From Pelagomonas calceolata (taxonomy: Eukaryota), in assembly GCA_918797485.1 (NCBI GenBank), contig CAKKNE010000003.1, forward strand, positions 5,332,001 to 5,385,517: a stretch of 53,517 bases of DNA. Direction: 5' to 3'. Both the position numbers and the translations under genes were made by a program. Shown piece by piece: positions 653-48,942 of the stretch (position 1 is its first letter; each line of letters opens with the position of its first letter). The notes below the pieces were generated by a model. The model did no database searches, was not told the origin of the DNA, and worked only from the letters and a program-made list of their open reading frames with translations.

Positions 653-723
653 GGTACCGCAGTATATCGTAGGTATGCAGGTACCACGGTACCGTAGGTA
701 CCGTAGGTAGCTGTGACCGTACC
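653..723. promoter_or_regulatory. GGTACC / TA-CCG-TA array ~90 bp upstream of the methyltransferase ATG
   Basis: ggtaccacggtaccgtaggtaccgtaggta; the same motif family recurs 5' of most genes. Regulatory role inferred only from position. Confidence 0.55.
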
Positions 724-1138
724 TGTATCACATTACTGAACACATGGTACATGTGCTTTTAATTCCTTCTATTGGCATGGTAGTTTGGGACTAAATACCC
801 CTATGACCGTAGAGACCAATGGGGCTAGCTTTCCCAGCCTGAGGATCATGTCACGGTCCCGTTCAAGTTCAAGTTCGACCCGTCGCGGATCGGTCACGGT
901 TATGCTCTTTTGCATGCGGTCTCGTGGCGAGCTAACTTGTTCGTTTGCTCGGGTATTTCCCTGAAGGTATGGGGTATCCCGGAACTGGTGTTGGTCGCCC
1001 GGATACGCAGGCCCGGAGGCTATCCCTAGATCCGCCGCGCCGCCGCGCCGCCGCGCCCGCCGGCGTCCGCCACGGCGTCCGGTGGGTCGACAACCCCTAC
1101 GACGATACCCCGGGCTCGCAGAGGGAGGGGGCCGCTAA

Positions 1139-1640
1139 GGGGGCGGTCTCGTAATCTGAGGTTCGAGTTCCCAGCCACTTTTCCGGTCGCGATTTTGGCT
1201 GTGGGATCCCAAAGAGCCCCTTTGTACGCCCCATGACCGGGCTGGGGGGAAGGGTCCACTTTCGCGGCGAGACGCGGTCGCGAAGTTGCCCATCTGGGGC
1301 CTAACGTGCGGGTATTTCAGAGACCTCTGGACTGAAAAATCAAAACTCGCTTCTATGCTGGTAATTTGGTCTCCCAGGGGCCCTCGGGCACCTATGGCGT
1401 GGGGCGGATGCGTAGGCGCGGCCGGGTACCCGATGGGCTGCCAGATAGGTCGCCTGACGCGGCACGAAACGCCACTGGCTCGACCTTCACAGGCCACTAA
1501 AATTTCCAAACCTAATCGTTTCGCTTACCCGTTTCGGTCACGTCCTAGAGGGGTACGTTGGGCCCCTATTCTCAATTTGCGACCGGCCAAGACGTCTAGT
1601 TATAGAGATACGGCAAATTTGGGGTTGGGTGTCCGCCCCC
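1139..1640. repeat. Dispersed repeat family C, long copy; possible MITE (GGGGGCGG..CCGCCCCC ends)
   Basis: 1152-1178 and 1460-1626 align with 8771-8971; 10-bp terminal inverted match 9/10; no clear TSD. Confidence 0.7.
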
Positions 1641-1727
1641 GTGGGCCGCTCCTCGTGCGAGTCGCTTGTTGTTTGAATAGACTGAACGGCACGTGTACTA
1701 TTACTGCGCCTTATCTTACTAGTCGCC

Positions 1728-2624
1728 CTACTTCTTGAACAGGGGGGTTCCCACCACCTTCTTCGTCTTTCTGGGCAGCTCGATCTTCGGCGCGGACGGC
1801 GCGGGCCCCGCCGCCTTCTTCGGTGCGGCGGCGGCGGCGGCCTTCTTCGGAGCGGATTTGGACTCGGCTTTCTTCGCCGCGGCTTTTTTGGGGGGCTGGG
1901 CGGCCTTCTGCTCGCCTTTGAACAACGCCTTGCCCTTGACTTTCTCGCGCTTTGGCGGAGCAGCCTTCTTGGGTGCTGGCGTCTTCTTCTGCGTCGCGGC
2001 CTTGGCGGCGATGGCCGTGGCGGCGGCGGGCGCGGCCGCGGGCACGGCGGGCGCGGCGGCCTTTTTCGCGGGCTTGGGCGACGGCGCAACGGGGTTGGCG
2101 TACTGCGTGACGCCGGTCTTGGAATTGAAATAATACGTCGCGCCGGAGCCGAGGTTCTGCACGACGTTCCAGTCGGACGTGCCGCCGCCGACGGGCAGCT
2201 TCGGGATCGCCGGGTTGGAGATGGACACGCCGACGGTGCCCGGTGACGACGCGATGCGGATATCGAGCACCTCGTCGTCGAGCGCCGGCAGCGGACCGAT
2301 CTTAGGCGTGGACACCGTGACCTTGACCTTGCCGTCCTTGGCAGAGAGCGCCGTGCCGACGAGGTCGCCCGAGACCTTGACGGTCGGCTTCGCTTTGCTC
2401 GGCGACACTCCGAAGCGGCCGAGGACCGGGAGGTCGACGACCGGCGGCGAGTTGATGTCGGTCACGTCCACCGACAAGGCTACCGCCGCGAGGGGTGACG
2501 CGACGACAGCACCAGCCAGCGCCGCGGTGGCGGCCTGCCGTTGCAACGCGGTCGGCAAGGCGCGTTGAGGCTGCGGCGCCAGCGACGCAGCGCTTGCGGC
2601 CAAGGCCAGCAATCGGGGAAGCAT
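1728..2624 (-). CDS. Putative plastid-targeted protein with a WW domain and a Lys/Ala/Pro-rich basic tail
   Basis: MLPRLLALAASAASLAP signal/transit-like start; WNVVQNLGSGATYYFNSKTGVTQYANP fits the WW pattern; KKAA-rich C-terminus; GC3-biased codons. Confidence 0.75.
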   Translation of the reverse strand: MLPRLLALAASAASLAPQPQRALPTALQRQAATAALAGAVVASPLAAVALSVDVTDINSPPVVDLPVLGRFGVSPSKAKPTVKVSGDLVGTALSAKDGKVKVTVSTPKIGPLPALDDEVLDIRIASSPGTVGVSISNPAIPKLPVGGGTSDWNVVQNLGSGATYYFNSKTGVTQYANPVAPSPKPAKKAAAPAVPAAAPAAATAIAAKAATQKKTPAPKKAAPPKREKVKGKALFKGEQKAAQPPKKAAAKKAESKSAPKKAAAAAAPKKAAGPAPSAPKIELPRKTKKVVGTPLFKK

Positions 2625-2684
2625 GTCTGAAAAAGTGAGTAAAATCTTTCGATGCAAGTGAAGTACCTGTAAGTGACCTACCTC

Positions 2685-2705
2685 GGTACCGGTACCGTAG
2701 GTACC
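2685..2705. promoter_or_regulatory. GGTACC array ~60 bp upstream of ATG 2624
   Basis: ggtaccggtaccgtaggtacc. Confidence 0.55.
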
Positions 2706-2763
2706 TAGGAAGTGAGAAAAAATACTCCCCCCATCCCTTCCACGAAGACTGCGCGGTCGCTCG

Positions 2764-5044
2764 TTACGCGCGCGTGTGGAAGGGCTGGGCGTCCGCCCGG
2801 CGCGGCGTCGTGTGCACCGACGTCGCGGGCGCCGGGCTGCCGGGCTTGGGCGGCGGCTCGGGCGCCGCCGCGAGCGGTGACGGGTCGTTGCGGGGCCCGA
2901 GCGGCGGGCGCGGCGGGGGCGGCGGCTGCGCGCGGAGGCGCGCGACGTGGTGCTTGAGGTGCTGGAGCTCCGCGCGGTGCTGGACGAGCTTGTGGACCTC
3001 GGCCTCGAGGCGCGCGTTGTGCGTCGCGAGGCCCTCGGCGTCGGCGACGGCGCCGGCGGCGCTCTTCTCGGCCGCGTGGAGCCGCGCGCGGAGCCGCGCG
3101 GCGTGGGCGTCGCGCTCCTGGAGCGCCTGGAGCAGAAACTGCGTCGGCTTCTCGGCGGTCGCGAGGCGCGCGACGGCCAGGTCCGCGCGCGCGCGGAACG
3201 CCGCCGCCTGCGCCGCGAGGCCGTCGTTCGCCCGCGCGAGCGCCTCGCCGGCGGCCTCGGCCTTCAGGAGCCGCTGGGCGAGGAGCACGGCGTGGCGGAC
3301 GCGGCGCTCGGGCCGCGAGAGGCCCGCCGCCACGGCCGCGTCGCGGAGGCCCGCGTCGGCGACGCCGGGCTCCGGCGCGCCGCCCGCGCGGAGCACCGCC
3401 GAGTCGAGCTCGAGCTCGAGCTGCTCGTAGGCGCGCACTTTGCCCGCGAGGTCGTCGACCTCGGTCTCGAGGCGGCGGCGCTCGCCGGCGACCTTCTCCT
3501 CGAGCGCGGCGTTCTCGCGCGTCGCGACCTGCGGTGGGCGCGCGGCGGTTCGGCGAGGGCGCGGCGCCCGGGCGGCGACGAGCCCTATCCCCCCCCCCCT
3601 CGTTCGCGCGGCCGCGACGGGCGACCTGCTCGCGGAGCATGGCGTTCTCGAGCCGCGCCTCGTCGCGGTCGCGCTCGGCCGCGCGGAGCCGCGTCGCGGC
3701 CGCGGCGAGCTCGTACGCCAGGACGCGCCGCTCGGCCGCGGCCTCGGCCGTCTCCGCGACCCGGCGCGCCTCGGCCTCGGCCGCCCGGCTCCGCGCGCCC
3801 GCGACCTCGGCCTCGGCCGCGACGCGCGCCTCGCGCTCGCGGCGCGCGTCCTCGACCGCGTCGGCGCGCGCCTCGCGGAGGCTGGCGGCCTCGCGCTGCT
3901 CGAAGGTCTCGCGCTCCCTCCGGAGCGCCTCGACGCGCGCGTCGGCCGCCGCCGCGACCTCGCGCGTGCGCGCCTCGAGCTTCTCGCGGAACGCGTCGCC
4001 CTCGAGCGCCAGGCGCCGCTGCAGGTCCGCGACCTGAACGCGCTTCTCCTCGACGGCCTCGTCGGCCCGGAGGCCGCGGTACTCGGCCGCGTCCGCGCGC
4101 TTCGCCTCGGCGTTGGCGACGTCGCGCTGGTGGCTCGCCTCCTGCCGCGCGAGCTCGCACGCGGCCTCGGCGTCGCGGACGCGCCGCGCGCAGTCCGCCT
4201 CGGCGGCCGCCGCCGACCGGACCGCGTCCGCCGCCTTGGCCTGGTGCGCCGCGAGCTCCGCGTTCTCGGCGACGTAGCGCGCGCGGTCCGCCTCGACGCG
4301 CGCCAGGCGCACCGACGCGGCGCGGCCGGCCTCGAGCGCCTCCGCGCGCTCCGCCTCGCGGCGCCGCGCGTGCTCGAGCTCCGCGGCGACCCGCGCCAGG
4401 TCGTCGCGCAGCAGCTGCTCGCGCTGCGCCGCGCCGTGCGCGAGGCCCTCGTGCTCGGCGCGGAGCCGCTCGTGCGCCCGCTCGGCCGCGTCGCGCCGCT
4501 TGGCCGCGTCGAGCGCCGCGCGCGCGCTTTCGAGCCGCGCGGCCTGCGTCCGCTCCGACGCCTCGACCACGCGCACCGTCGCCAGCTCGCGCAGCGTCAG
4601 CTCGTCGGCCGGCCGCGCGCGGAGTTCGTCGACGAGCGCGCGGACGGACGCGGTTGCCGCCTCGTCGCCGCCCGCGTCGACGGCGTACGCCAGGCCGTCG
4701 CGGAACCCGTCGTCGATGGCGTCGCGCCGGTCCCGCAGCGCCTCCGTCGCCCGCGCGAGCTCGACGGCCTGCGCGTCGGCCTGCCGCCGCGCCGCGTCCG
4801 CGTCGCGCCGCGCGGCCGCCAGGCGCGCGTGGTACGCCTCGCGCTCGGCCGCGCGCCGCTCGTGCGTCGCCGCGAGCTCCGACTCGAGCTGCCGCGCGAG
4901 GGGCGCCGGCTCGCCGCCGAGGTTGGAAAACGACTCGGGCAGCGACAGCGTCGGCGACGAGGCGGCGCTGCCCCCGGCGCGCGGCCGTGCGGGCGACGCG
5001 CCCAGCGCCGAGATCTCCTCGTCGTCCGAGGCCGCGCCGTCCAT
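2764..5044 (-). CDS. PIBF1: PIBF1/CEP90-like centriolar coiled-coil protein; join(5044..3626,3528..2764)
   Basis: Motifs ELRARPADELTLRELATVRVVE, RAYEQLELELDSAVL, RRVRHAVLLAQRLL and KPTQFLLQALQERD resemble PIBF1; GT-AG intron 3529-3625 joins the two ORFs in frame. Confidence 0.8.
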
Positions 5045-5157
5045 AAGTACCAGACCGCTTGGATGGAAAAGCAGGCGGGTGGGCTCTTGGGCAGCAGCCC
5101 GTTTTTGTGCGCGAGTCGTTTGCCCGATGTATTTAAAAAACACCGAGTATCCGCTGA

Positions 5158-5194
5158 TACCGTAGGTACCGCAGTACAGTACCGTAGGTACCGT
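5158..5194. promoter_or_regulatory. GGTACC array ~115 bp upstream of PIBF1 ATG
   Basis: taccgtaggtaccgcagtacagtaccgtaggtaccg. Confidence 0.55.
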
Positions 5195-5776
5195 TGGTAA
5201 CCTGCTATGATATGGCCACGTATCCTTGTATTTACGTCTATGATGCTCCGGGTATTAAACCCAGCAGCCTTTGGCAGTTATGGAGCAGGAATTTTATATT
5301 CCTAAGCTGGGATTTATTCCCATATGTATACGTCCTGTTCGACCTGTAGGGAAGCTCCTAAAATTCGACGTAATTCCTGTCTTGTATTTGCGAGGGCCAT
5401 AGACTCGAATTTTGCGCTTGAAATATGAAATTGTTTGCGATACTATCGATTGCGCTGCAAGGCAAAGAGTAGGTAACTAAGACCAGAGGTCCACCTCTCT
5501 CGTTTGCGGAGAACGCCACTTCCAATTACCCAGCGCCTGGAAATATAAGATCTAACTCCATGACGGGGCCCGAGAGGGGACTTCCTTTGCAAGTGTACTT
5601 TGAAGTTGAAGCTCGGGGCAGCATCGGGGCAGCCTCGTTTCCATAGCAAATAGCTGCCATTAGGTCCATTTTGTGGAGCGGTGCGCACCGGCTGGCCTCG
5701 ACGGCCGCCGGCGTCGCGCGAGGCGCGCGCACTACGGGCCAATAGGGGGATACCGAGTTACCCTAAGGGCTTATAG

Positions 5777-5939
5777 CAATATAGAGTGTCCTTAGACCTC
5801 TTTATTCAATATAGAGAGGGCTTAGAGAATTAATGTCAATATGGAGATTGTGTAAGAGTGCTTACATAAGCAAGGTAGTTAGGCGCGCGCTCACTCCATA
5901 TTGAAAGATATGCCAGTGGTGTAAGGCCCCTCCATACTG
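5777..5939. repeat. CAATAT(A/G)GAG motif: three direct copies at 30-bp period plus two inverted copies
   Basis: Direct at 5777, 5807, 5837; inverted CTCCATATTG at 5894 and CTCCATACTG at 5930. Confidence 0.7.
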
Positions 5940-6264
5940 ATTTATGCGGAACCTGGATTATACGGCCGTATTATTACTTCTTCGCGGTGAGCGCGTGGTC
6001 TGACTATGCTACGACGTCGTGCCCGTCGTTCTTGGGGTTCACCGTGACTAGTACTACTATAGTGGGGTGCGGCCGCGTCGGGTTTCGCGCGCAAGCGTCA
6101 CGGGGCAGCCCCGCGACGGCTCTTGCCCCACGGAACACTCTTCTAGACGTGGCACATGGGGCCGGCAAAAGCTTAAAGATGAAACTCCCTGGCCGTACCA
6201 TTCAGTACCTATTTTAAATACCGGTACATCGGGCAGCGTATTTTAAAGCGGCTTGGCGGACACC

Positions 6265-8616: not shown

Positions 8617-8770
8617 GCCCAGTGGGGGGCTAAGTTTCCGGGCGCGTCCTAGACGGCTGGCTAGACAGTCCAAACTTCTATCCAAACTCACGCCCGGGTT
8701 CGCTCCATGTCACATGGCTACGACATGTAGTACTCTTCCTAGTGCGAGCAACTTGAAGGGAGGGCTCTCC

Positions 8771-8971
8771 TAATCTGAGATTCGAGTTCCCAGCCACCTC
8801 GGCACGAAACGCCACTGGCGCGACGTTCGCAGGCCACTAAAATTTCCAAACCTAATCGTTTCGCTCGCCCGTTTCGGTACGTTCCCGAGGGGTAAGTCGC
8901 CCCCCTATTCTCCGACTCAATTTGCCGGCCTACCGAACGCCTAGTCATAGGGATACGGCAAATTTGGGGTT
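8771..8971. repeat. Dispersed repeat family C, internally deleted copy
   Basis: Matches 1152-1178 joined directly to 1460-1626 (about 280 bp missing). Confidence 0.75.
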
Positions 8972-9520
8972 CGGCGGTGATCATGATCCCCCCTGTGTGC
9001 GAGCAGTGCGTCGAGCACTAGCTCAAACATCATTGACTCGGAAACTGGGCTAAAAACAATTACTAGTGCTAGTAGCAACAGTGGCCCGCGGGGCGCTTTT
9101 CTGATAGCTCTAGCCAAAACGGAAGATAACTATACTAGTCTATAGTCTTACAGACATGAAGATCATGATGCCGGAGCCCGCACCAGATTCTCCTCCGTAT
9201 GGACCTCCGGATTAAAATCGTAAAATTCCTCCTCGCAAGTTTAAATATGTTTGTATGCAAGTGCGGCCGTGACGAAGCACTCGGGGTCCGTGTTAGAGGG
9301 ACTAGCCACAATAAGCGACTCTCCCTCTCACGCTTGATCATGTGACGTCGCCAAAGCCAGGGGCCGAGGACGTTGCGAGCGGTGCCTTTTTAGAAAAGCC
9401 GTACCGGAGCCAAGGTTTCGGTCGCAACGGGGTTCAAGTTCCACATGTTGCCTACTAGTAGAACAACAAGCAATCGTTCAAGTTGGACCTATCAGGAAGT
9501 GGGAGGCGTCGAAGATAACT

Positions 9521-10528: not shown

Positions 10529-10944
10529 GGCAGCCCCGACAGGCCTCTACGCTTCTGCTTTTCCGGCTTCAGGCGTACTCGTGGGCAGCCCATTAAGTAT
10601 ATATATTTTTGCACCATACTCACATCTGTCTCGCGCACAATGTCATAGCGCAAAATCTCACTAGCACTGGACGATTTTTTCCTAACTCCGCTAAAGTTAG
10701 CCTCAAAAGTGCGGAGAGAGCCGTCACGCGTGCTTGGCAGACCGCTGCAGAGCCTAGAAGACAACATGATCGGAAATTTGAAGCCTTACACCAAAAATAT
10801 AAATTCACTGCAGTCACGGTCACGGTCGTCACGGTTTTGCTGATTTACCCGGTACTCGAGACTGGTACTCGACTATTTTGCATTGTTTTTGTAGAGCTAC
10901 CCAAGGGAGCCCTGGCGCCTCTAGCCGTCCGTACGTGGCTGAAA

Positions 10945-11068
10945 GGTACCCTAGTTAGGATAGCTCAGAGTACCGCAGTACCTACCGCAGTACGGTACCG
11001 TAGGTAGGGTGGTACCAGTACCTACGGTACCGTAGGTACCGTAGGTAGATCAGCACATACCGTAGGTA
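10945..11068. promoter_or_regulatory. Long GGTACC array upstream of TIM22, in the divergent region shared with the 10528 gene
   Basis: gtaccgcagtacctaccgcagtacggtaccgtaggtag...ggtaccagtacctacggtaccgtaggtaccgtaggta. Confidence 0.55.
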
Positions 11069-11137
11069 GCACCACAAAACTAATAGCAGTCTACAGACAG
11101 CGGTTGCAAACCTACGCTAAGATGTCATTGTTTGACG

Positions 11138-28364: not shown

Positions 28365-28446
28365 CGTTTGTGGCTGCGTGGCGCTTCGTGTGTGTCGGGC
28401 AGCCGTCGAACCGCCGGTTCCTCCTTGGAGAATGCACGGACGAGGA

Positions 28447-28514
28447 GTACCGTAGGTACCGTGGTACCATGGTACCGTAGGTACCGTAGGTACCACGGTA
28501 CCGTAGGTACCGTA
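28447..28514. promoter_or_regulatory. Purest GGTACC array, ~85 bp upstream of the HECT gene ATG
   Basis: gtaccgtaggtaccgtggtaccatggtaccgtaggtaccgtaggtaccacggtaccgtaggtaccgta. Confidence 0.6.
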
Positions 28515-28554
28515 TTCACTAGGCCTATTCTATCCGGGTATCTAACTAAGATAA

Positions 28555-28767
28555 ATGGGACCAGGATAGTGAAGCTAAGATAAAATTTGGGAGATTTATA
28601 AGTGGAAAAGGGGCCGTTGCCACAACGGGCGCCAACCCCCAGGGACCCCGGACCACTGGCACGCGCCCGGGAGCTCAAGTGCGCGTCGCGGGAGCTCAAG
28701 CAACGCGCCGGAGCCAGTGGCCAGTTCCACATCCTGACGGGCCTGACGGGGGGCATCCTGATCCCAT
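28555..28767. mobile_element. Possible 213-bp MITE
   Basis: ATGGGACCAGGAT (28555-28567) and ATCCTGATCCCAT (28755-28767) form a 12/13 inverted match; single copy here. Confidence 0.4.
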
Positions 28768-28881
28768 CAAGAGGGCTTGCCTATCGTTGGTAATGTAATG
28801 CAATGCTATGTATCTATACCTTCTACCGTAGGTACCGTAGGTACCGTAGGTATACGGTACGGCCCCTTGGAATCTAAAAAA

Positions 28882-29640
28882 ATGAAGGCGCGGTTGCGTT
28901 ATCGCTCCCTTGCAAGCCTGGGACTCCTGGCGGCGGCGCCAGGAGTGGAGATCGGCGAGCAACAGGCTCGTAGACCTACTAGCCTACACGTCTGGGAAGC
29001 CGGCATCGCGCAGTGTCCCATCGTGTGGTTCATTCACATCCCAAAGACCGCCGGCTCCACGATCAACGACGTGCTCAAGCGAAGCAACTCCGACAAAGTC
29101 CAATACACTAGCTTAGGGCCGAAACGCAATGTCTACGTCTCCCACGGCAGAAACCACAATTGGGCGCGCCCAGACCTCCTCGCGATGGCGAACCGAACCG
29201 AGCGCAAAATTATCGTGACCGCCGAGACGCCGATCGCCGACCTAAAGCGGCACGGGTACCCGTGGCTCTCGGAGACGTGCTTTTTCTCCGTCGCGCGCGA
29301 CCCTTACGAGTGGGTCATCAGCGCTGCGAACCACATGAACCGTTCAATCAGCAGCCGTTATGGGTTCTTCGACCACGCAAACATCCAGTCCTACATGACC
29401 GGCTACGGCGCGGGGGACCACGGCGCAGCGTTCGTGTGTGTGGGCACCCTCGACCACTTCCTCGACGTCGAGCACGGCCTGTTCCCCCGGTTCGCGGAGA
29501 ACCTGACGCTACCTCACCTCAACGCGCGCCCGCACGCGGTCAACATCACGGAGGAGCTGGAGGAGGTTGTCCGCACGAAGTACGCGATCGACCTGGAGCT
29601 CTGGGCTAGCGTGGCGCGGCAGGGGCTGGTTTGTTGGTAG
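28882..29640 (+). CDS. Sulfotransferase family protein with signal anchor
   Basis: WFIHIPKTAGST, FSVARDPYEWVISA, YAIDLELW; GGTACC array at 28817-28861 upstream. Confidence 0.85.
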   Translation: MKARLRYRSLASLGLLAAAPGVEIGEQQARRPTSLHVWEAGIAQCPIVWFIHIPKTAGSTINDVLKRSNSDKVQYTSLGPKRNVYVSHGRNHNWARPDLLAMANRTERKIIVTAETPIADLKRHGYPWLSETCFFSVARDPYEWVISAANHMNRSISSRYGFFDHANIQSYMTGYGAGDHGAAFVCVGTLDHFLDVEHGLFPRFAENLTLPHLNARPHAVNITEELEEVVRTKYAIDLELWASVARQGLVCW

Positions 29641-29662
29641 CCTGCTAAGATAGAGTAGTATA

Positions 29663-29749
29663 TGAAGTAGAGCCCATTTTGCATCAAAACGGACGCTCAC
29701 GGGAAAACCCGTTCGCTAACCGTTTGGATGCAAAATGAGCTCTACTTCA
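29663..29749. repeat. 87-bp hairpin with 30-bp inverted arms
   Basis: 29663-29692 vs 29720-29749 match 28/30; inner ACGGG-AAAA-CCCGT stem. Confidence 0.85.
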
Positions 29750-30067
29750 ATTCAAGTTATATTACGACCGAAATCCATGGTTCTGGGTGGCCGATTTGGG
29801 GGTCTAATGATTTCTATGGCAATGTATGGCAATGGGAACAGGTACTTATCGCAATAGCATTCCTGTAGGCTCGACTAATTACACTATTAATCTCGGTGCA
29901 AGTTACTCGCAACTTGAACTCTTGGGGATAACTTCAAGTTTTGTTCAAACTCTTGCAGATCAAGATCATGCTGCAACACACACTGGCACAAGCTTTTACG
30001 CAAATAACGTAGTTCGATGGAGTCTCAGTATTGATGGCGTGTTGGTAGAAAATCAAAGAATGATTTA

Positions 30068-30228
30068 TAGCTCACCAGCCGAGGGCTGGGCCAACCTGAC
30101 TACGAGAGTGTTTTATAGTGAACTGTTGTTACACCGTAGTGCTTTTGACACTCGATGTATAGACTCAAATATTAGAGAGTGGGAGATACATATCTAGGGT
30201 AGGAAGGGCTAGTAGGTTTCTCTCTCTA
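30068..30228 (-). mobile_element. Copia-family LTR, truncated copy
   Basis: Near-identical to the reverse complement of 47522-~47682. Confidence 0.8.
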
Positions 30229-30412
30229 AGGAATGCGATACGGTACCTACGATACCATACCTCGAGAGTAGGTACCGCAGACTCACGGCAACTGGTGAGT
30301 CGAGGTGCCATACGACGTCGGGCTACGCCGCAGGTCTAGCGCTACAAGCTTTACACAAAGGAGGCCGTATTTTCGCGGCGCGCCCGAGACGCCCTCTCGA
30401 AAGTCAACGGAG

Positions 30413-31885: not shown

Positions 31886-32073
31886 CGCGTCGGGGTCCTA
31901 GAGGGTAACTAGCCAGCTATTCAGATTGGCACCCTATGGTCCACACGGTATGGAATAGAGGTATGGAATGGAGACCTTACACTAGAAGGAGGTTCTAGCT
32001 CCTTCTTAGCTCTTCTTAGCTCCGCCGCACGGTATTGCTACGAATCGAGGGCCTGGCCTGACTCTATCGAACC

Positions 32074-35000
32074 ATGCTCTCCAGGATGAGACCGGCGCGC
32101 GCGCTCGCCACGCGCGCGGCGGCGGCGGCGGAAGAGTTCGCGACCGGCACGTCGTCGGCGTACGCGGACGCCCAGTACCTCGCCTGGCAGCGGGACCCGG
32201 CCTCGGTGCACTCGTCGTGGGCCTCCTACTTCGCGTCGGGCGCGTTCGCGCTCCCGCCGCAGCTCGGCGGCGCGCCCGCCGCCGGCGCGGCGGCGGCCGC
32301 GCAGGTGCCGGCGGGCGACGCGGAGTCGACGCTGCAGGGCCTCACGGGCGCGGACACGGCGCGCGCGATGCATCTCATCGCCGCGTACCAGCGGCGCGGC
32401 CACGAGCGCGCGGACCTGGACCCGCTGCGCCTCGCCGGCGACCGGCCGCGGCTCCGCGACCTGGACCCGGCGACGTACGGCTTCGAGCCGGGCGACGCCG
32501 ACCGGGCGCTCCGGCTCGCCTCCGCGCCCGGGTCGGCGGTCGCCGGCTGTGTGGAAATCAACCAGTGCGTCGGGTGCACCCCGACGCGGCGATTCAGGAC
32601 GAACGCGCCGCAAATTTGATTTCCACACAGGTCGCCGGCCTCCTCGGCAACGCGGACGTGAACGACGACGGCCTGACGACGCTCGCCGAGCTCGACGACT
32701 TCCTCCGCGACACGTACCGCGCTGTGTGGAAATCAACCAGTGCGTCGGGTCAGCGCTGGCTCCGTCGAGCGGTGAGGAACCGACATCGCCACGCCATCGA
32801 GCAGGCGTCGCGTCGATGGCGTGGCGGTCGACGCGGCGATCCAGGACGAACGCGCCGTAAATTTGAGTTCCACACAGGTACTGCGGCACCGTCGGCGTCG
32901 AGGCCGAGCACATCACGAACCTCTGCAAGCAGAACTGGCTCCGGTCGCGCATCGAGGTGCCGCGGAAACCGCTGACGCTCGACGAGCGGACGCACGTCCT
33001 CGAGCGCCTCGCCTTCGCCGAAAAGTTCGAAAACGTCCTCGCGACCAAGTTCAACACGGCCAAGCGCTTCGGCCTCGAGGGCTGCGAGTCCATGATCGGC
33101 GGCATGAAGACCATGGTCGACGCGGCCACGCTCTGCGGCGTGACGGACGTCATCATCGGCATGCCGCACCGCGCGCCGCCGGCGTCGCTCGGAGGGGCGC
33201 GGGGAGGGGCGGGGGGCTTCACGCGGCGCGCGCAGGCGGGCGCCTCAACGTGCTGTGCAACGTCGTGCGGAAGCCCATCGAGGTCATCTTCCGCGAGTTT
33301 TTGGGGACGGCCCGCGACCAGGCCGCGGGCGGCGCGGCGTGGTCGGCGTCCGGCGACGTCAAGTACCACCTGGGCACGGCGTACGACCGGTCGTACCCCG
33401 ACGGCCGCAAGGTGCGGATCGAGCTGCTCCCGAACCCGTCGCACCTCGAGGCCGTCACTCCGCTCGTCGTCGGCAAGGCGCGCGCGCGCATGGACGCCCA
33501 GGGCGACGCGCGCGGCGACGCCGTGCTGCCCGTGATCGTCCACGGCGACGCCGCGTTCGCCGGGCAGGGCGTCGTCTACGAGACGATGCAGATGGTCGCG
33601 CTCGAGGCGTACGGGACGGGCGGGACGATCCACGTCATCTGCAACAACCAGGTCGGCTTCACGGCGACGCCGGAGCAGGGCCGAAGCACGATGTACGCGT
33701 CCGACCTCGGCAAGGCGTTCGGCGCGCCCATCTTCCACGTCAACGCCGACGACCCCGAGGCGGTCTGCCGCGTCTTCGAGACCGCCGTCGCGTGGCGCCA
33801 CGAGTTCAAGACGGACGTCATCGTCGACCTCGTCGGCTACCGCAAGTTCGGCCACAACGAGATCGACGAGCCGACGTTCACGCAGCCGATGATGTACGCC
33901 AAGGTGCGGACGCAGCCGTCGGTGCTGACCAAGTACCTCGAGACGGTCGCGGCCACGGAGCCCGTCGTGCCGGCCGCCGACGTCGCGCGGATCGTCGCGC
34001 ACGTCGACGACGTCTTCGCCCGGGCGTTCGAGGCCAAGGACACGTTCACGTGGGACCGCGACGTCTGGGGCCAGAACTGGCAGAAGATCGTCACGCCGGC
34101 GGACGTCGGCCACGGCGCCTTCGGCAAGACGGGCGCGTCCCCGGACGCGCTCGCCGCCGTCGGCGCCGCGCTGTCGACGGTCCCCGACGGCTTCAAGCTC
34201 CACCGCCGCCTCCGGGGCCGCCTCGCCGGCTTCGCGGAGGCCGTGGCGTCCGGCGAGGGCGTCGACTGGGCGCTCGGCGAGGCGCTGGCGTTCGGCACGC
34301 TGCTCCTGGACGGCATGCCCATCCGCTTCACGGGCCAGGACGTCCAGCGCGGCACGTTCACGCACCGGCACGCCGTCGTCCACGACCAGGACGACGGCCG
34401 CGAGTACTGCTTCGTCAACCACATACACGCGGACCAGCCGGCGAAGCTGGCCATCCACAACAGCTTCCTCTCGGAGTACGGCGTCCTCGGCTTCGAGCTC
34501 GGCTACTCGTACGAGTCCCCCGACGTCCTGTGCATCTGGGAGGCGCAGTTCGGCGACTTCGTCAACGGCGCGCAGATCGTCATCGACCAGTTCCTCAGCT
34601 CGGGCGAGGCCAAGTGGATGCGCCAAACGGGACTCGTCGTCCTCCTGCCGCACGGGTACCAGGGCCAGGGCCCCGAGCACTCGTCCTGCCGCATCGAGCG
34701 CTTCCTGCAGAACAGCGACGAGGACCCGGACGTCATCCCGCCGGACCTCGACACGATCGAGGGCCAGACGCGGCAGGTCCAGCTCAACAACTGGCAGATC
34801 ATCAACCCGTCGCCGCCGGCGCGCGAACCCGTCCGAGGCGCCTTCTCCGACCCCCCCCCCCGCTTGGCTCGTCTCCGTCGGAAGACGCCTCGACGCGGTG
34901 TCGCTTCACGCGCGTCGCCGCAGGTCGACGCCGGCGAACTACTTCCACGCGCTCCGTCGCCAGCAGCACCGCGACTTCCGCAAGCCGCTCATCGTCGCGT

Positions 35001-35696: not shown

Positions 35697-36347
35697 GCCT
35701 CGCCGGTTGTTCTCCCTCCCGCCGCTAGGTACCGGGCTAGATCTAACGCAAGCTGGCCAACGAACCGATAAGGCCAGACGACAAGTCGAGGCTGAACCCC
35801 GGATGCCAGTGACCGGTCCGAGTCGCAATCCAGCTGCCGAAAGTAAGCCTCGGGGAACTCGGAGGAATAAGAGTAAGGCTTTGCCTGGCACCATGCCATT
35901 ATTGGAGTAAGCCAGGGGGGCCTGCCCGTGATGCGGACCGCCGTGTCCGCCGTCCTCGATTTCAATCATCTATTTATTTATTTTGGAGGCAACAGGAACT
36001 TCTTCTTTTTGACCGCAACAAGCAGATCGCTGTGGGCCCGGGCCGTTTGCCTCCAATGAATAAAAATAGAACATAAATCCAATGAATGGATAAATTGAAA
36101 TCGCTATACGCCTTGACGGTAGCCTGGGGCTCGGTCTCCTCCCGGGCCGAGTGACTCCCTGACGTACTAGCAACTCAGGCTAAATCAAGATTACAAATCG
36201 GCGACTCGGAGGACGGAGGACGCATGGGTCACGATGGTCTCCCTACTTCTAAGGCCTTCGCCCGCATCATGATGGCGTCCCCAGGCCCGGGCTCCCGGGG
36301 GCGTGGAGCCAGGAAATCCCCAGAGAATATAACACAGGCCCTGGGTC

Positions 36348-38430: not shown

Positions 38431-38503
38431 CGCCGCGGTGGTGCCGCCCACGTGCTGCCCGGAACCGCAATTAATAATTTATTTATTAGTTGAGACAGGT
38501 CGC

Positions 38504-38563
38504 AGTACGCGGTACTGCGGTACCGTAGGTACCACTGGTACCAGCAAGTACCGTAGGTACCGT
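38504..38563. promoter_or_regulatory. GGTACC array ~75 bp upstream of the MYB ATG
   Basis: gtacgcggtactgcggtaccgtaggtaccactggtaccagcaagtaccgtaggtaccg. Confidence 0.55.
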
Positions 38564-38564
38564 G

Positions 38565-38735
38565 TATCAAGAGTATGTCGCAGCGTTATGTAAAGTAGCA
38601 GGGTGTTAGCTAACCAGCCGAGGGCTGGCTAGACCTGACTACGAGAGTGTTTTATAGTGAACTGTTGTTACACCGTAGTGCTTTTGACACTCGATGTATA
38701 GACTCAAATATTAGAGAGTGGGAGATACATATCTA
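38565..38735 (-). mobile_element. Copia-family LTR, truncated copy
   Basis: Near-identical to the reverse complement of ~47554-47724. Confidence 0.8.
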
Positions 38736-39008
38736 AGACTCGGAACTTGAAATGGATCTCAGTGAATACCACTAACCGATCGTCGGAGTCAATGTGAACC
38801 GTTTGCCAGTGATATACTTCATTCATATCACCAACCAGAACTTTAGGCAGGTTTATCCCAAACCTTCTGAAACAACTAGGCACATAAATATAGGCCCGGG
38901 GGCTTGAATCTATAACTAGACTCCGGTCGCGCCTCCGAGGAGGCTCCGCCGCCCGCGTCCCGCGGGGGGAAAATCGCACTTCTCTTAATTTTACCACACA
39001 CACAAACC

Positions 39009-41189: not shown

Positions 41190-41233
41190 CGCTATGGCTA
41201 TGCCACCTCTATGCCATCCGCCAAAAATCTAGC

Positions 41234-41297
41234 TACCGCAGTACCGGTACCGAGTACCAGGTACGGTTACCTGCCGCAGGTACCGTGGTACCTACGG
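41234..41297. promoter_or_regulatory. GGTACC array within the ~195-bp gap between divergent TIP41-like and PPTase genes
   Basis: taccgcagtaccggtaccgagtaccaggtacggttacctgccgcaggtaccgtggtacctacgg. Confidence 0.6.
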
Positions 41298-41383
41298 ACG
41301 CCCCCAATTCGCCTCCATGCTCCGCGGCGGAGCATCATCTCTAAATTGCAACTTGCCTGGTCCCCCAGACGGCTCCAGACTGC

Positions 41384-42292: not shown

Positions 42293-42514
42293 TGTAATCT
42301 ATCCTCCTGCTAATTGCCGCGGGCACCACCCGTTCTCGGGCCTGGCCGGCCCAGGGGGCTCACCCTGCATACGGATTTTCGATAGGTACGATCTGACTGG
42401 GGAACGACATAAAAAATCAGGACCGAGGGCGTTGGAGCGCTTCGAGGGTTCAAGCATTGGCGGTGTTCACTGGCACAGGTAGATGGCACAGGGGGCCCCG
42501 GCCCGCAGGGAGTC

Positions 42515-42633
42515 CAGGGTGGCAATCCGAGACGAAGTAGCCGGGAGAGACCGGTAACTCTTCCTACTAGGGAGGAATAAATTTCGATTTTCGGAAAGTA
42601 GTTATAAGTAATATACAACAGACGCGCGCGCGG
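42515..42633. mobile_element. Isolated end of the hAT-like family seen at 48943 and 51824
   Basis: CAGGGTGGCAATCCGAGACGAAGTAGCC... aligns to 48943-49060, then diverges; no second TIR found. Confidence 0.8.
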
Positions 42634-43009
42634 CTCACTGATGATGAAATAGTTATGTCCATTTCAAGTTTTACACCAAAATGACCTGTTTTCGCTCATA
42701 TATGCAAGATTTTCGCTCTAAGGCGAGCGAAAATTTTCAGACACGATCGGAACACATTTCGTTGATAAAAATGGGTCATAACCATGCGCCCCTTTTTGCC
42801 GACAAAACCCGATTTCCCCCCAGCCAGGCAATCGATCAGCAGGCACTCTAAGCAGACACATTAGCAAACGCAGGTCCAGTAATATTGCTATCAACATCAG
42901 AAGAAGTTTGATAACCTTGACCAGTAACATAAGTCGAACTTAAAACACTGGCATCCGACTCGGATGAAGTTTTACTACTAGCCCCTATCAGCCCCGTACT
43001 GCAGTGGGC

Positions 43010-44324
43010 TCAGGACGGCTCTCGGGACGGATGCGGGTACACCGGCAGCGCTGCCGTGAGCGCCACCGCCAGGGCCTCGACGGGAGCGCGCGCATTCCAG
43101 CACCAATGCGTCTGGTCCATCTGGCCCCGGTCGCCGAAGTTGTGCGAGTATCGCCGATCGGCGAGGAGCAGGTGCGTGTGGACGAACCTCGCGTGCGGTA
43201 GGAGCCGGAGAACGACGTGTTTGGCGACTCGATCCCGCCACGCGCCCGCCGTGTTCAGCGTGGCGAAGTCGCGGAGCCGCGCGCCCCCGACTGTGTGCTG
43301 CGGGCTGTGCGTCAGGAAGACGACGTGGCGCTGGGGACTGCGCGTGCGTAGGTACACGGCGAGGCGCACGAGCGCGGCGGCAAACGTGCATTGGTCCCGG
43401 TCCTCTCCAACTCCGTAGGTCGGCACGTCGGCCCGGAGAAGCGCATAGTACACCTCTCGTTTGTACTTTTTATTGGGCCGTGCCGTCGTTGCGCGCGCCG
43501 CGGCGCGCGCGGCCAGGGCGTCGATTGCGGCGATCGACTCGTTCCACGGTTGGAAGAAGACCTCAGGCGCGAAGATGACGCCGTCCTCTCGACATGTTGT
43601 CTTCGAGGCGTTCCAGTTGTACCACAGGCCGATCTGCACGAGTAGCGTCGCGTTCGGGTGGTTTTGGAGTTTCTGCAGGGAATAATCGAGAACCTCTCCG
43701 TCCAACGGCACGACGTGCAGCGGCACCCCGACGGGTCTCGTCGCATCCGCCTCCGCCGTGCCCGAGCAGCGGAGCGCGTCGTAGTGCCACGACGCGGCCG
43801 CGGACAAACCGAGGGCGACGCTGTCGCCCATGAAAATAAATTTCCACCGTTGTCGTGCGGCGATTCGCAGCGCGTCGAAGGGGCTCGCGATCCGGCACCT
43901 GCGGATGCGAACGCTCGGCCCGAGAATACCCGCTCGGACCAGACACCGGGACCCGCGGCCGTGCAAGGACGTAGGTCGCCTTGTCCTCTCTCGCGCGTCG
44001 TTCGCGATCCGAGTCCGTCCACTCGCACGGGATCTCGCCGTTGTGCTTCGTGACGCACATCTCCTCGCCGGCCACGAACCGGCTGCACAGATTCGTGGGT
44101 TCGAGCGCCGCGGCGTAGCAGCGGCGAGCGGCCGCAGTCCAGCCGCCCGCCGCAACATCCTCCCACCGTCCCTTGACGTCGTTGCCCCTACACCACGTCG
44201 GCGGCGCCTCGCGCCGCGGCCAAAAGTCGTCGTCGCGGAGAGCAGCGCATGCGTCCGGGTCACAAGTGGGGACCGCTGCTACCAGGAAGCGCCAGGGATA
44301 AATTGCGGCGACGCAGGCCGTCAT
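43010..44324 (-). CDS. PC-esterase/TBL-like SGNH protein (putative polysaccharide O-acetyltransferase); intron acceptor at 43899, start uncertain
   Basis: FIFMGDS and MDQTHWC (GDS..DxxH) motifs; LVQIGLWY; Cys-rich N-terminal exon with KGRW. Confidence 0.7.
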
Positions 44325-45059
44325 TATTTTTGCAAGATGGGGCTGCCTCGGCGTGAGCATTCCGCCGCGAACGCCTACAGACAGCGTAAATTGCGCTAAA
44401 CTAAGACCGCATGAGTTGTCTGTTGCCCCGCGCCAGTCAAGGTCCACCTGCCAAGGCCAGGCCTGGAGATCCTGGATGGGGGGTTGGCCGGGGTTGGAGA
44501 ATCCGTCCTCAAACTCAAACCTACGCGTTTCACGCGTCTAAAACTTACACCTAAGCGCAAAACCTGTACGCCTTAATTTTCGGGTTTTGCCAAAAGCAGC
44601 AACCGTTTTTCGAGGAGGAGTCACTATGAATGACTATGAGTGACTGTCGGCATCAGATCAGTCTGATAAAGGATTTAGTCGTATGGATGGGCGGGCGAAT
44701 GATCACGGCCGACATCGACATTGCGGCCGACATGATCCCGTCGTACGAACAAAATGACGGCTCGCTCACGAAATTTGATAAGGGCCCCCACGCTCGGAGC
44801 GAGGGCCTATGTGCCCCTCCCCTACCCCTCTATAAAGCTCCTGGGGTGAATAACCCGTCTAACGGGCACTCACCCGAGTAATAAAGCCAGGCCTGCGGCA
44901 CCAGGGGCTAATAATCCCTGGGTCTGGTCCCAGGGGAGTTACTTGCAACCTAGGGCGCCACTAGAGGGCGCCGCGGCATCTGATAAAGTAGAAATCGAGG
45001 ACGTTCGCAAGAGGGAAGGCTACCCTCCCCCCTCTGAGTAGCTGCATGTGGAGGTCTCC

Positions 45060-47055
45060 TTACCCCGCCCAGGAAGAAGACGACGGCGCGGCGCGGCGGT
45101 CCGGCCCGCCGGGCGTGGCGACCGCGCGGGGCGCAGGCGGCGGCAAGCGAGACGCGTCGGCGGCGCGTGCGAAATCGCGCCAGCACGTTGCGGCGCCACG
45201 CGCGGTCGCCACGTCGGGGTCGGCGGCCAGCGCGGCGGGGCGCGGGCGGCGCGCAGCGTCGCGCGCGAGGCACGCGCGGACGCGCGCGTCGAGCGCGCGC
45301 GAGCGGCGCGGTGGCAGCGGCGGCGCCGCGTCTGCGCGGAGCGCCTGCCACGCCGCGCCGGCGGCGGCGAGCGGCGCCGCCGTCGCGAGTTCGTACGCGG
45401 ACGCGCCGAGCGCGAACACGTCGACGTGCGACTGGGGCCGATAGTTCGACTGGAAGCACCTGCGCGCGAGACCACGCTGTTCCATGGCCGCAGGAAAACG
45501 AGCCATCTCGATCGAAGCTTCCCGCCGGGCCGCGGCTGACGTCCGCGCCGCACGCACTCGGGCGCGAGGTAGCGCGCGTCGCCTTCGGCGCCGTCGCTCG
45601 GTGCGGCGCCGACCGTGGCAACAGACCCAAAGTCGCCGAGCTTCAGCTGCCCCTGCGCATCGACGAGGACGTTGCCCGGCTTGACGTCGCGGTGGACGTA
45701 ACCGCGCGCGTGGACGTGCGCGAGTGCGTCGCCGACGTCGCCAAGCCTGCGCGCGAGACACGACAAGCTCGGGGCGAGCGACGCGATGTCGAATCGGGCG
45801 ATCCTTCCCGCGCCGCGCCGGGCAGCTTCCAGAGGTGCGGCGCCTCGGGCGCGTCTCCGTTCCTCGAGACGATCTGCGCGACGCTGCCCAGGGCGCAGAG
45901 CTCGAGCTGCGCGTGGAGGTGGCCGCCCTCCTGCCACGCGAGGTGGAACGCGATCACGTTCGGCGCGCCCCGCAGCGCCCGCAGCGCCTCGCACTCCGCG
46001 AGCGCCGCCTCGCGCGCGCGCCGCGACCGGAACGGGCGCCGCGCGACCTTGATCGCGTAGCGCTCGCCGTCGACCGTCGACGTCGCGGTCCAGACGTCCG
46101 AGAACGCGCCGCGGCCGCACCGGCCGTCGAGGACGAAGTCGCGCGCGAGCCGGACGTCGCGGCGCGGCGCGTCGCTGGCGGCGTGGCGCGTCCGGCGCCG
46201 CTTCGGCGGCGCGGGGCGCGGCGGGCGGGGTTCCTCGGCGGCGTCGTCCGTCGACGCGTCCGACGCGGCGGCCGCCGCCGCGTCGTCGGCGGCCGCGGCC
46301 GCGCGGACCCACGCCGGCCTGTCGTGCGCGTCGAGCGCCGCGTCGACGAGGACCTTGGTCGCGTCGAGCGACGACGCGACGCGCGGGGGCGGCGCGGCGC
46401 GCGGCGCGCTCCTCCGCGCGCGCGCGTCGGCCACCGCGCCCGTCGCTCTCGCATGGGCGCCGGCCTCGGCCGCGGCGCTCACCGCGGCCACCGCCGCCGC
46501 GCGGCGGCGCCACGCGGGCTCGCGCTCGGGCGGCGACGAACGCGGACTCGACGCGGCCGCGGCCGCGTCGCCGAACGCCGCGGGGTCGGGCACCGGCCGG
46601 CGCTTCACGGGCGCGTCGTCGTCGAACTCCGGCGACGCGGCGCCGACCGCCGGCGACCAGTCGAGGCGCGGCTCCTCGCCGCGCGACGGCACGCGGACCG
46701 TCTCCGCGCGCGGCGTCGTGCGCGCCTCCGCCCGCGGCGTCTGCGCTCCCGCCCAGGCTGAGGCTGCGGCCGCCCGCGGCGACGCGGCGGCGGCCTCGTC
46801 GGCCGCGCCGTCGAAGTCGAGGCGCGCCGCGACGCCGCGCGCCGCCGGCGCCCGCGCCGGCGGCCGGCGGCCGGGCCGCTCGCTCCGGCGCGGCGCGCCC
46901 ACCGCGGGCGCGGGCGGCGCCGCGGGCGATTCCTCGGCGAAGAGGAACGACGCCACGCGCGAGCTCGGCGCCGGCCGGCGCGCGCTGGCCGGCCCGACGC
47001 GAGGCAGGCTTATGCGGAACTGGCCGCCGAAGGAGAGGCTCTCGGCGCCAGACAT
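45060..47055 (-). CDS. Wee1/Myt1-family protein kinase; join(47055..45824,45746..45558,45459..45060)
   Basis: GRGAFSDV, DGERYAIK, AWQEGGHL..QLELC, HRDVKPGN, KLGDFG, EGDARYLAPE, DVFALG, WQALR. Confidence 0.9.
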
Positions 47056-47324
47056 GCTGCGTTTTATTATGTCCTCAAATTGGTGTGGTCTAAAACCTAC
47101 CCCGCAGAGCTGAATGTGACGCGCGCGCCGGTGCGCTTTAAACATATATATATATATATGTGTAGCCATATAAATACGTGTAGCTATAGTCAATTCGGGT
47201 TGCGGGGGCGCGCGCCTAGAGGGGTGACGGGGGAGCTATCCCCCGCGAGCGTGTACGTAAGCTTGCTGCCGGTCGTAGAAGCGTGCGTCGTCGTCGCCGT
47301 GCCCGGGCGCGTTGGTGAAGTCCG

Positions 47325-47724
47325 GGTTGCCGCCGACGAGCCTACTTTCCGAAAAAGGACGAGAAGGATCCAACAAAGGTATTTTACGGATATTCATTTC
47401 AAGAAGAAATCTGTTGCACATGAAGCCTATCACTTGTCACATGGATTTTGTCAGTGAATAGACTGAGTTGATACATTCTCTAGTAGAAAGGCATCTAATG
47501 GACGCTCGCGCCCAGGGGGAGTAGAGAGAGAAACCTACTAGCCCTTCCTACCCTAGATATGTATCTCCCACTCTCTAATATTTGAGTCTATACATCGAGT
47601 GTCAAAAGCACTACGGTGTAACAACAGTTCACTATAAAACACTCTCGTAGTCAGGTCTAGCCAGCCCTTGGCTGGTTAGCTAACACCCTGCTACTTTACA
47701 TAACGCTGCGACATACTCTTGCTA
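47325..47724 (+). mobile_element. Copia 3' remnant: RNase H-like fragment, polypurine tract (47514-47521) and full 203-bp LTR (47522-47724)
   Basis: VAADEPTFRKRTRRIQQRYF resembles the NPxFxxRTKHIxxRYH motif; AGGGGGAG directly precedes TAGAGAGAGAAAC...CTCTTGCTA. Confidence 0.75.
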
Positions 47725-47818
47725 ACGGTACCGTACCTCCTACGGTACCGTAAACAGGTTTGCACCTTTTGCGCGCCGCGCGCCTGGTGGCGCCGGTGGC
47801 GCCGCTTGCGTTCGATAA

Positions 47819-48700
47819 ATGGCGGGAACGACGTTCGCGCTGGTGCCCCAACTCGCGGGCACGCGCCCCCTCATCCGGCTCCCGGCGTCGGGTGAGGTCA
47901 CGGTCGGACGCAGTGCCGGGGCCCAAATCCAGCTGAACGCGGCGTTCATCTCGCGGCGACACGCGAGGCTGATCGCCGAGGCGGGTCGCGCCTACGTCGT
48001 GCCGCTGTGCCGCGACGACAAGCTCGTCACGGTCAACGGCGTGCCGGCGGCGCGCGGCGCGCGCGTCGAGCTGCGGGCCGGCGACGCGGTGAGTTTCGTC
48101 AAGGAGGAGGCAGACTTTGCGTATCGCGTCGAGCGGCGCGCGCCGCCGGCGGCCAACGAGGGCCAGACGGCGTCGGGGACGAAGCGGCCGCGCGCCGCGT
48201 CCGACGGCGACGTCGAGGCCGACTACGAGTGCTGCATCTGCTCGGGCGTCATCGCCGCGTGCCACTGCCTGCCGTGCGGCCACGCGGCCTGCGGCGAGTG
48301 CCTCGTCCGGTGGCTCGCCACGAAGCGCGAGTGTCCGGAGTGCCGCGCGGCCGTGCCGCCGCTCGCGGTCCTCGCGCCCGTCCACATCGTCGACAACGCC
48401 ATCGAGGCGAGGATCGGCGCCGTGCGTGCCGCCGAACGCGAGGACTGGGAGGCACGGCGATCGCGCTGGCGTCGGACGCGGCCCGACGGGCCCCTGCGCG
48501 CGCCGCCGTCGCCCGCCGAGCGGGGGCCGCGTCCACGCGCGCCGCCCCCCCGTGCGAGCACCGCGGCGCCGCCGCGCGCGCGGCGCCGCCGCAACGCAAT
48601 TCCGCCAGTCGCCGACATACGCGCTCTCCTCGCGGGTCGGCGCCGCGCAGCCGCCGTGACAGACCTCACCGAACCCGAAATCATTTCAATCGACGACTAA
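47819..48700 (+). CDS. FHA-RING E3 ligase (CHFR/RNF8-like)
   Basis: VTVGR..FISRRHA..VNG FHA motifs; C3HC4 RING CCIC..LPCGHAACGEC..W..CPECR; GGTACC array at 47726-47752 upstream. Confidence 0.9.
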   Translation: MAGTTFALVPQLAGTRPLIRLPASGEVTVGRSAGAQIQLNAAFISRRHARLIAEAGRAYVVPLCRDDKLVTVNGVPAARGARVELRAGDAVSFVKEEADFAYRVERRAPPAANEGQTASGTKRPRAASDGDVEADYECCICSGVIAACHCLPCGHAACGECLVRWLATKRECPECRAAVPPLAVLAPVHIVDNAIEARIGAVRAAEREDWEARRSRWRRTRPDGPLRAPPSPAERGPRPRAPPPRASTAAPPRARRRRNAIPPVADIRALLAGRRRAAAVTDLTEPEIISIDD

Positions 48701-48942
48701 TTAATGTACTTAGCACACCAGTGGGGGAACTACTTTCCGCACTGGAGCCTCGCTCGGGGCTGGCTGCCCTCCGTTTTTAAGTTTTTACTTACTAGTAGCT
48801 CTTAAGTATCTTCTCCCTACTCAGTCAAAATGCCAAACTAGAGCATTCGAAATAGCAATAAGGTAACTGCATAGAGTATTCTCAGTCTTGCGCGGTAAAA
48901 CAAAAGAGGGAACAACACGCCGAGGCCCAAACCTCGCGCCGG

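Follow-up and report, generated by a model that had tools for sequence, protein, structure and literature searches.

One formula for a dense set of 6-nt insertions in the non-coding DNA of a pelagophyte alga: a likely transposon excision scar with unusual geometry

Tc1/mariner elements are known to insert at TA only. Their excision footprints, like those of Stowaway elements, retain the 2-bp duplication together with bases from the element ends and carry no palindrome derived from the flank (PMC4561436; statements here and below refer to the accessible part of each cited article). The footprints of Ac/Ds (hAT) hold a palindromic insertion copied from the flank and centred on a single base, the complement of the flanking base, which is read as hairpin opening followed by microhomology end joining; the duplication is usually of 8 bp and the products are mixed, with 28 types among 128 clones (PMC5873905). 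Hairpins on the flank have been shown for hAT (Hermes), Transib, RAG and Muta1 (MULE), in which a first nick frees the 3'-OH of the flank, the flank is sealed and host enzymes open it; the Muta1 hairpin holds flank only (43+43 nt), and in yeast this element is excised precisely in more than 90% of cases (PMC5499845). The CMCT clade comprises EnSpm/CACTA, Mirage, Chapaev, Transib, Plavaka and ESTA, mostly with CA..TG ends and 2-5-bp duplications (PMC12730594). Here we describe a set of 8-nt words in 53,517 nt at a chromosome end of the eukaryote Pelagomonas calceolata (contig CAKKNE010000003.1, positions 5,332,001-5,385,517; hereafter the window), all written by one formula and most frequent in its intergenic DNA. 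The signature is real, rule-based and very dense, and it probably records the excision of a transposon by an unusual geometry.

All the words follow XY-C-revcomp(XY)-G-XY, where XY is any dinucleotide, revcomp its reverse complement and the parse 2+1+2+1+2 (TT-C-AA-G-TT, TG-C-CA-G-TG, TC-C-GA-G-TC, GT-C-AC-G-GT, CT-C-AG-G-CT, AT-C-AT-G-AT and TA-C-TA-G-TA are examples). An earlier, sequence-only reading of the window had reported several of these words as recurrent intergenic 8-mers, and the positions it gave were all correct on recount: TGCCAGTG is present at 15 of 15 listed sites, TTCAAGTT at 21 sites against 19 listed (the tandem extras start at 868 and 14434) and TCCGAGTC at 11 against 9 (13372 and 44008 lie in GC-rich sequence). 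The strings CTCAGGC and ACTAGT, also said to recur, form full rule words at 7 of 11 CTCAGGC sites but at only 4 of 13 ACTAGT sites. Three further classes predicted by the formula (CC/GG, CG and GC) had been absent from that list and are all present. When the middle pair of XY-C-mm-G-XY is tabulated over the window, mm is revcomp(XY) for each XY containing A or T.

The enrichment persists against Markov backgrounds of order 2 and order 3 trained on the window's own low-GC DNA, with observed counts of 21, 15 and 9 against 0.4-0.7, 0.7-0.8 and 0.55-0.84 expected, respectively, for the recurrent words. Over 24 kb of low-GC window DNA, 87 rule sites compare with 7.9 expected, and among the 16 apex pairs compared in the window only C/G is strongly enriched (runner-up count 22). 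The comparison sample consisted of at least 123 metagenome loci (457 kb, partly redundant) retrieved with a 19-mer from a window repeat resembling a long terminal repeat (LTR); they are assumed to come from the same species and are skewed to repeat-rich DNA. In 367 kb of these loci, 992 rule sites were counted against 91 expected, with ten of ten classes enriched, while an unrelated giant-virus locus used as a control (L001) has 4 rule sites in 20 kb. L001 was the one hit in scans of viral and genome contig collections, which yielded nothing from this organism. Stripping open reading frames (ORFs), allelic duplicates and high-copy 16-mers leaves the +6 form (6 nt added) 14.5-fold enriched. In repeat-masked non-ORF DNA the six most enriched 8-mers are rule words, so that searches for intergenic motifs would be misled by them; there the +3 (all XY), +4 and +5 forms reach ratios of only 1.08-1.15, and forms with a 1-bp duplication or with a T/A or A/T apex show no enrichment. 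Class counts are uneven, from 2.0 to 7.3 per 1000 dinucleotides. Words one mismatch away from the rule are also in excess (748 against 469-533 simulated), indicating that the process is also old.

Comparison of repeat copies established that the words are derived +6 insertions. Across 131 LTR copies, 31 of 99 rule contexts are collapsed in at least 10 copies and expanded in at most 4; a single context is expanded in the majority, and the remainder are too thinly covered for a call. When copies were aligned in pairs, 6-nt insertions appeared at 163 distinct sites. Of these, 59 match the rule exactly; among the remaining 104, many either reflect a single deletion that recurs in comparisons with many copies or are rule events in a shifted view. 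Excising the 6 nt recovers the sister copy exactly, and the duplicated part is 2 nt only, around C-revcomp-G, rather than the 3-nt duplication plus 3-nt filler that had been proposed. At 51 polarised sites, nine of the ten dinucleotide classes were seen (TA in 4) and C..G flanked the scar once. A census of 65 polarised insertions of at least 3 nt, some of them allelic duplicates, contained 30 made up purely of +6 units, 1 combining +6 and +3, 5 made up of palindromic +3 units, 8 with TA-array units (see below) and 21 that were not reduced.

The sequence-only reading had already seen the words as extra 6 nt in non-coding DNA, and sister copies and wild alleles bear this out. Its LTR insertion at 16434 is real against two window LTR copies, and those at 11881 (repeat family E) and 18380 are real against metagenome copies, as are 21124 and 21138. 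Near 8910, in family C, the +6 insertion stands but departs from the rule at one base. In family D, the sequence inserted at 21287 opens with a rule word yet extends beyond it, and the rule explains it incompletely. The coding fragment at 18380 has no Pfam match, its label of Copia RNase H being that of the earlier reading only. A 6-nt indel polymorphism, of the kind that it suggested looking for, was found at a unique locus, where contigs from three wild samples have TG joined directly at the place of the 35804 word. A 3.2-kb contig from a fourth wild sample has ~11 nt fewer across 35804 and 35817, and none of the remaining rule words along this stretch shows a gap of this kind, so that some scars are polymorphic and others shared. 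The 6-nt indel rows at 11881 and 16433 (among 12 of 308 indel rows) fall in repeats and are therefore evidence on paralogs, not alleles.

The scars are depleted in long ORFs. Their density is 4.76 sites/kb outside ORFs and 0.56/kb in ORFs of at least 300 aa, close to a control word (0.48/kb), and the handful seen in GC-rich coding DNA probably arose by chance. They are clustered, with 61 neighbours at most 10 nt apart against 17 simulated, and the flank logo over 608 sites is nearly flat, indicating no target preference. The 103 non-allelic LTR copies hold 38 scars, or 0.11 per private substitution, unevenly spread.

Judging from these end products, the words are probably what a cut-and-paste transposon leaves behind when it is excised. 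Its ends would be C...G and its target duplication 2 bp long, and its departure would involve a nick one base inside the end, a hairpin on the flank and repair through the duplication; the cut-and-paste or nuclease/repair origin suggested earlier pointed in the correct direction. Mechanistically, the element would insert at almost any XY and duplicate it, giving XY-[C...G]-XY. On excision, the transposase would nick each end one base in, on the non-transferred strand, so that the flank retains the terminal C of the element. The 3'-OH of the flank would attack the opposite strand at the exact border, and each flank would be sealed into a hairpin whose tip is this C. A host nuclease opening the hairpins 3' of the tip would then leave an XY-C-revcomp(XY) tail and its mirror; these would pair via the duplicated dinucleotide only, and fill-in would produce +6. 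Repeated local re-insertion would give rise to stacked clusters. Because the middle varies with the flank, it would have to be copied from it, as P-nucleotides are, and since C and G are independent of the flank they would have to be supplied by the agent. Only this strand orientation would be stable, because a base lost from the non-transferred strand would be refilled at integration, at no cost to the element, while a loss on the transferred strand would leave the element shorter after every jump.

Two predictions of this hairpin model held. A palindromic XY would permit a 5-nt overlap with a central mismatch, leading to a +3 product. At AT and TA, the ratio for the +3 form with a C/G apex is 1.67 and 1.53, respectively, against 1.31 and 1.27 with an A/T apex; non-palindromic XY show no consistent apex bias, and the 4 polarised single +3 events are all at TA or AT. 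The length of the palindrome, in turn, would equal that of the duplication, and a 3-bp duplication would leave XYZ-C-revcomp-G-XYZ (+8). This form has 11 sites against 1.5 expected, and one +8 case is polarised (L115 against 4 copies).

Arrays of the TACCGTAGGTA type stand upstream of many genes (window 660-720, 2680-2710, 5150-5200, 10970-11070, 28445-28515, 38500-38565 and others; loci L009, L025, L036 and L044) and look like stacked scars too. In LTR copies, both a +9 unit (TA-CCG-TA-GG-TA) and a +8 unit (TA-CCGCAG-TA) are seen singly, as polarised insertions at TA. The hairpin model can accommodate the +9 unit if a TA-specific element is nicked 2 and 3 bases from its border, but it does not accommodate the +8 TA unit.

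Several results weigh against an excised transposon with a flank hairpin. The 21 unreduced insertions of the census are unexplained by the rules tested, many of them holding near-rule words. At 35817 the wild empty site has a different dinucleotide. CG and GC lack the +3 apex bias, and the +8 numbers are small, with some control cells at 4 against 1.4 and the G/C cell at 8 against 1.5. Scars per LTR copy and divergence are uncorrelated (rho 0.09, n=100), so that scars do not build up in a clock-like manner, and their count failed as a clock. Neither the window nor the 457 kb of loci yielded a convincing element that combines C...G ends with a 2-bp duplication, and no filled allele was seen among the matches listed in read comparisons. 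Pfam gave no transposase domain in the 141 ORFs covered (102 of the 228 low-GC ones and 39 more), no ORF with CMCT-like motifs (C(2)C, H(3-4)H) resembled a transposase, and the split alignments and junction lists of the loci revealed no shared terminus starting with C. The missing donor may be explained by the breaking of short-read contigs at multi-copy elements. In the accessible part of the P. calceolata gene table, "transposase" denotes a Tc1-like gene only, and PF02992 and Plavaka do not appear; the genes were predicted on a repeat-masked genome (PMC9481584).

Individual donor candidates were rejected. Scans of the window and loci for terminal inverted repeats (TIRs) with a duplication returned matches at chance level. 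L068:4008-5393 was discarded because a 1333-aa ORF crosses its end, L010:112-905, with C...G ends and an AT repeat, occurs in one copy and does not stand out from the chance matches that other end letters give, and L003:2506-2816 is equally readable as an element with a TAA duplication. A matching duplication is lacking for the CACTA-like pair at 5730-6064; a "skip" allele seen in read comparisons looks like a paralog. The introner-like elements and the 430-bp element end in C...G, but their duplications are 8 bp long. At L050:427-791 lies a 365-bp element with CA..TG ends and numerous subterminal repeats, for which sister copies suggest a 3-bp duplication; it is a possible donor of the +8 class, but its right flank diverges after 5 bases.

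The same transposon might have left the scars without a transposase hairpin, by a mariner-like staggered cut with a one-base C overhang on each flank, the palindrome arising by snap-back through a host polymerase or ligase ahead of joining, a route that we consider unlikely. Its +6 product would be identical, and mariner/Stowaway footprints typically keep element bases beside the flank (PMC4561436). The simple joins XY-C-XY, XY-G-XY and XY-CG-XY, on the other hand, are unenriched over all XY (1.08-1.15, as above), so that the snap-back would need to be near-obligatory.

It is more doubtful still that no transposon was involved and that a host nuclease cut open chromatin with a 2-nt stagger, followed by untemplated addition of C and snap-back repair. 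Such a stagger would be Spo11- or topoisomerase-like. The empty donor search and the clustering of sites in intergenic DNA speak for this origin; the constant C/G apex, however, demands three special steps and is retained by the 3-bp sister form. Scar density, moreover, is equal near low-GC genes (4.67/kb) and high-GC genes (4.91/kb), yet the low-GC regions of P. calceolata have been proposed to be recombination-poor (PMC9481584).

Two further ideas are very improbable, namely that several sequence-specific elements, as in the sequence-only reading, or regulatory motifs produced fixed words, or that ancestral words were lost by deletion. The uneven class counts favour several agents, but one formula yields all ten classes, the flanks carry no target preference and the words are private insertions within many-copy repeats, which refutes both. 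A hAT-type footprint on a 4-bp C-XY-G target, its apex being the complement of the flanking base, would share the single-base-apex palindrome of Ac/Ds (PMC5873905) but is refuted, because C and G expected outside every scar are found at 1 of 51 polarised sites and the flank logo is nearly flat.

Returning to the excised transposon with a flank hairpin, the scar resembles Ac/Ds footprints in its inserted middle, which is revcomp(XY) in all ten classes. Unlike them, its apex is always C/G whatever the flank, its duplication is of 2 nt only and not of 8 bp (5-8), and one product dominates. The retained 2-bp duplication recalls Tc1/mariner and Stowaway, and the constant C and G are compatible with mariner-style remnants of element ends, donor ends being unseen in the window and loci; the middle copied from the flank and the nine polarised classes, in contrast, depart from those footprints and from a TA target. 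By analogy, the scar can be read as joining an Ac/Ds-type flank palindrome with mariner-type element bases. It behaves as a hairpin-type footprint, belongs with neither hAT nor mariner, and its CMCT membership is putative. The modelled order of events (first nick, flank 3'-OH, flank hairpin, opening by host enzymes) is that of Muta1, Hermes, Transib and RAG, with one extra element-derived base predicted in the hairpin relative to Muta1.

The CA..TG ends and 2-5-bp duplications of most CMCT elements make these the best candidates, and on this analogy a relative of EnSpm/Plavaka would be the likeliest agent, an attribution toward which we lean. Transib and RAG, related through this clade, hairpin the flank as modelled here, and the duplications of PlavakaB are of 2 or 3 bp, like the major +6 and minor +8 classes (PMC12730594). 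Duplications of 2 bp (major) and 3 bp (minor) with flat flanks agree with the clade, as read from scars and not from filled sites; of the CA..TG ends, the scar reveals the first base only (C..G). More specifically, we are evenly divided on whether a RAG/Transib-related (CMCT) transposase makes a hybrid cut, with a mariner-like nick inside its own end and a RAG-like flank hairpin, which the host repairs in almost one way, the process accounting for about half of the sampled derived small insertions and ~3% of the sampled non-coding DNA.

A full-text literature search returned no description of the rule or of pelagophyte footprints, most subscription work (e.g. early Spm, Tam1) lying outside its scope. 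No account of this scar for a CMCT element was found; figures or supplements may hold one. In their accessible parts, the CMCT article lacks the word "footprint" (PMC12730594), two CACTA articles give no footprint sequences in the text (PMC8195511, PMC3193017), and nothing decisive appears in PMC4763223, PMC12477816, PMC11219922 or bioRxiv 2025.05.19.654958.

Known hairpin footprints are mixed products of reporter assays; here, one strict formula holds at ~1000 natural sites in the sampled DNA. The formula sets the duplication length (2 bp), the terminal base of the element and, if the model is true, the nick position of an unisolated transposase. How elements with 2-bp duplications, probably related to Transib/RAG, are cleaved thereby becomes testable on one gel (hairpin of 2n+1 nt). 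It also provides a searchable mark of past transposon traffic in genomes that have lost the elements. The scars are a large source of non-coding change and keep the reading frame. If the hybrid cut is true, they would be a genome-wide readout of a cleavage step for which no description was found in the CMCT clade, and its transposase would reside in a globally abundant pelagophyte alga.

Table 1. Positions of rule words and polarised scars in the window (a rule word is an exact match to the formula unless a mismatch is given)
Feature	Positions	Strand	Evidence
Cluster of 5 rule words (836 AG, 850 GT, 862+868 tandem TT, 893 GT)	836-900	.	rule match
2 rule words (5911 TG, 6041 AC)	5911-6048	.	rule match
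7 rule words (8750, 8980, 9035, 9162, 9433, 9453, 9477)	8750-9484	.	rule match
+6 insertion in repeat family C, 1 mismatch to TC rule word	8911-8918	+	sister copies without insertion
3 stacked GT rule words (10813+10819 tandem, 10828)	10813-10835	.	rule match
13 rule words (11740, 11825, 11881, 11966, 11974, 12033, 12045, 12069, 12078, 12100, 12136, 12146, 12187)	11740-12194	.	rule match
CT scar in family E, polarised	11881-11888	+	sister copies without the 6 nt
6 rule words (14294, 14345, 14401, 14412, 14428+14434 tandem)	14294-14441	.	rule match
2 rule words (16242 TC, 16282 TG)	16242-16289	.	rule match
CA scar in LTR-like repeat, polarised	16434-16441	+	collapsed in 73 of 131 copies, expanded in 1
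4 rule words (18212, 18380, 18471, 18484)	18212-18491	.	rule match
TC scar, two in-frame extra codons in a dead retroelement coding fragment	18380-18387	+	L046 copy without scar
6 rule words (19746, 19845, 20055, 20062, 20204, 20312)	19746-20319	.	rule match
4 rule words (21124+21138 polarised against sister copies; 21287 in longer compound insertion; 21311)	21124-21318	.	copy comparison
5 rule words (28654, 29751, 29911, 29933, 29981)	28654-29988	.	rule match
Two scars (35804 TG, 35817 TC) missing from wild alleles; empty site exact for 35804	35804-35824	+	wild contigs
Rule words 36035/36037 (overlapping), 36141, 36174, 36203, 36266, 36284	36035-36291	.	no 6-nt gap in spanning contig
4 rule words (38737, 38744, 38804, 38893)	38737-38900	.	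rule match
4 rule words (42468, 42663, 42946, 42957); 42663 polarised against one copy	42468-42964	.	rule match, copy comparison
TA rule word	48790-48797	.	rule match

One metagenome locus, L038, is almost free of scars (0.5/kb) owing to an 8.5-kb virus-like insertion (L038:3726-12206) with long terminal inverted repeats and a 4-bp duplication, which lies within a rule scar of an LTR. Its ORFs include a P-loop ATPase-like one and a 392-aa one whose closest clusters are viral, some of them containing jelly-roll capsid families. An 87-bp imperfect palindrome at 29663-29749 of the window has ends similar to the termini of this insertion.

The window itself has GC-rich genes with lower-GC intergenic DNA between them, and its IFT80-like protein is 56-63% identical to the nearest named pelagophyte proteins. 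Eighteen of the 24 listed sequencing runs, mostly marine metagenomes, contain at least half of the sequence words sampled. Introner-like introns at 32547-32630 and 32722-32877, of a type reported for pelagophytes, have TIRs and 8-bp duplications (8/8 and 7/8). The 430-bp TIR element is present as two inverted copies (48943-49371 and 51824-52252) and a partial copy (42515-42637). The 8-bp flanks of the two copies are crossed (8/8 and 7/8 matches), so that the 2.45 kb between them, genes included, were probably inverted by recombination between the copies. Degenerate subtelomeric repeats occupy 52900-53120, followed by the telomeric TTAGGG array from ~53120 to 53517.

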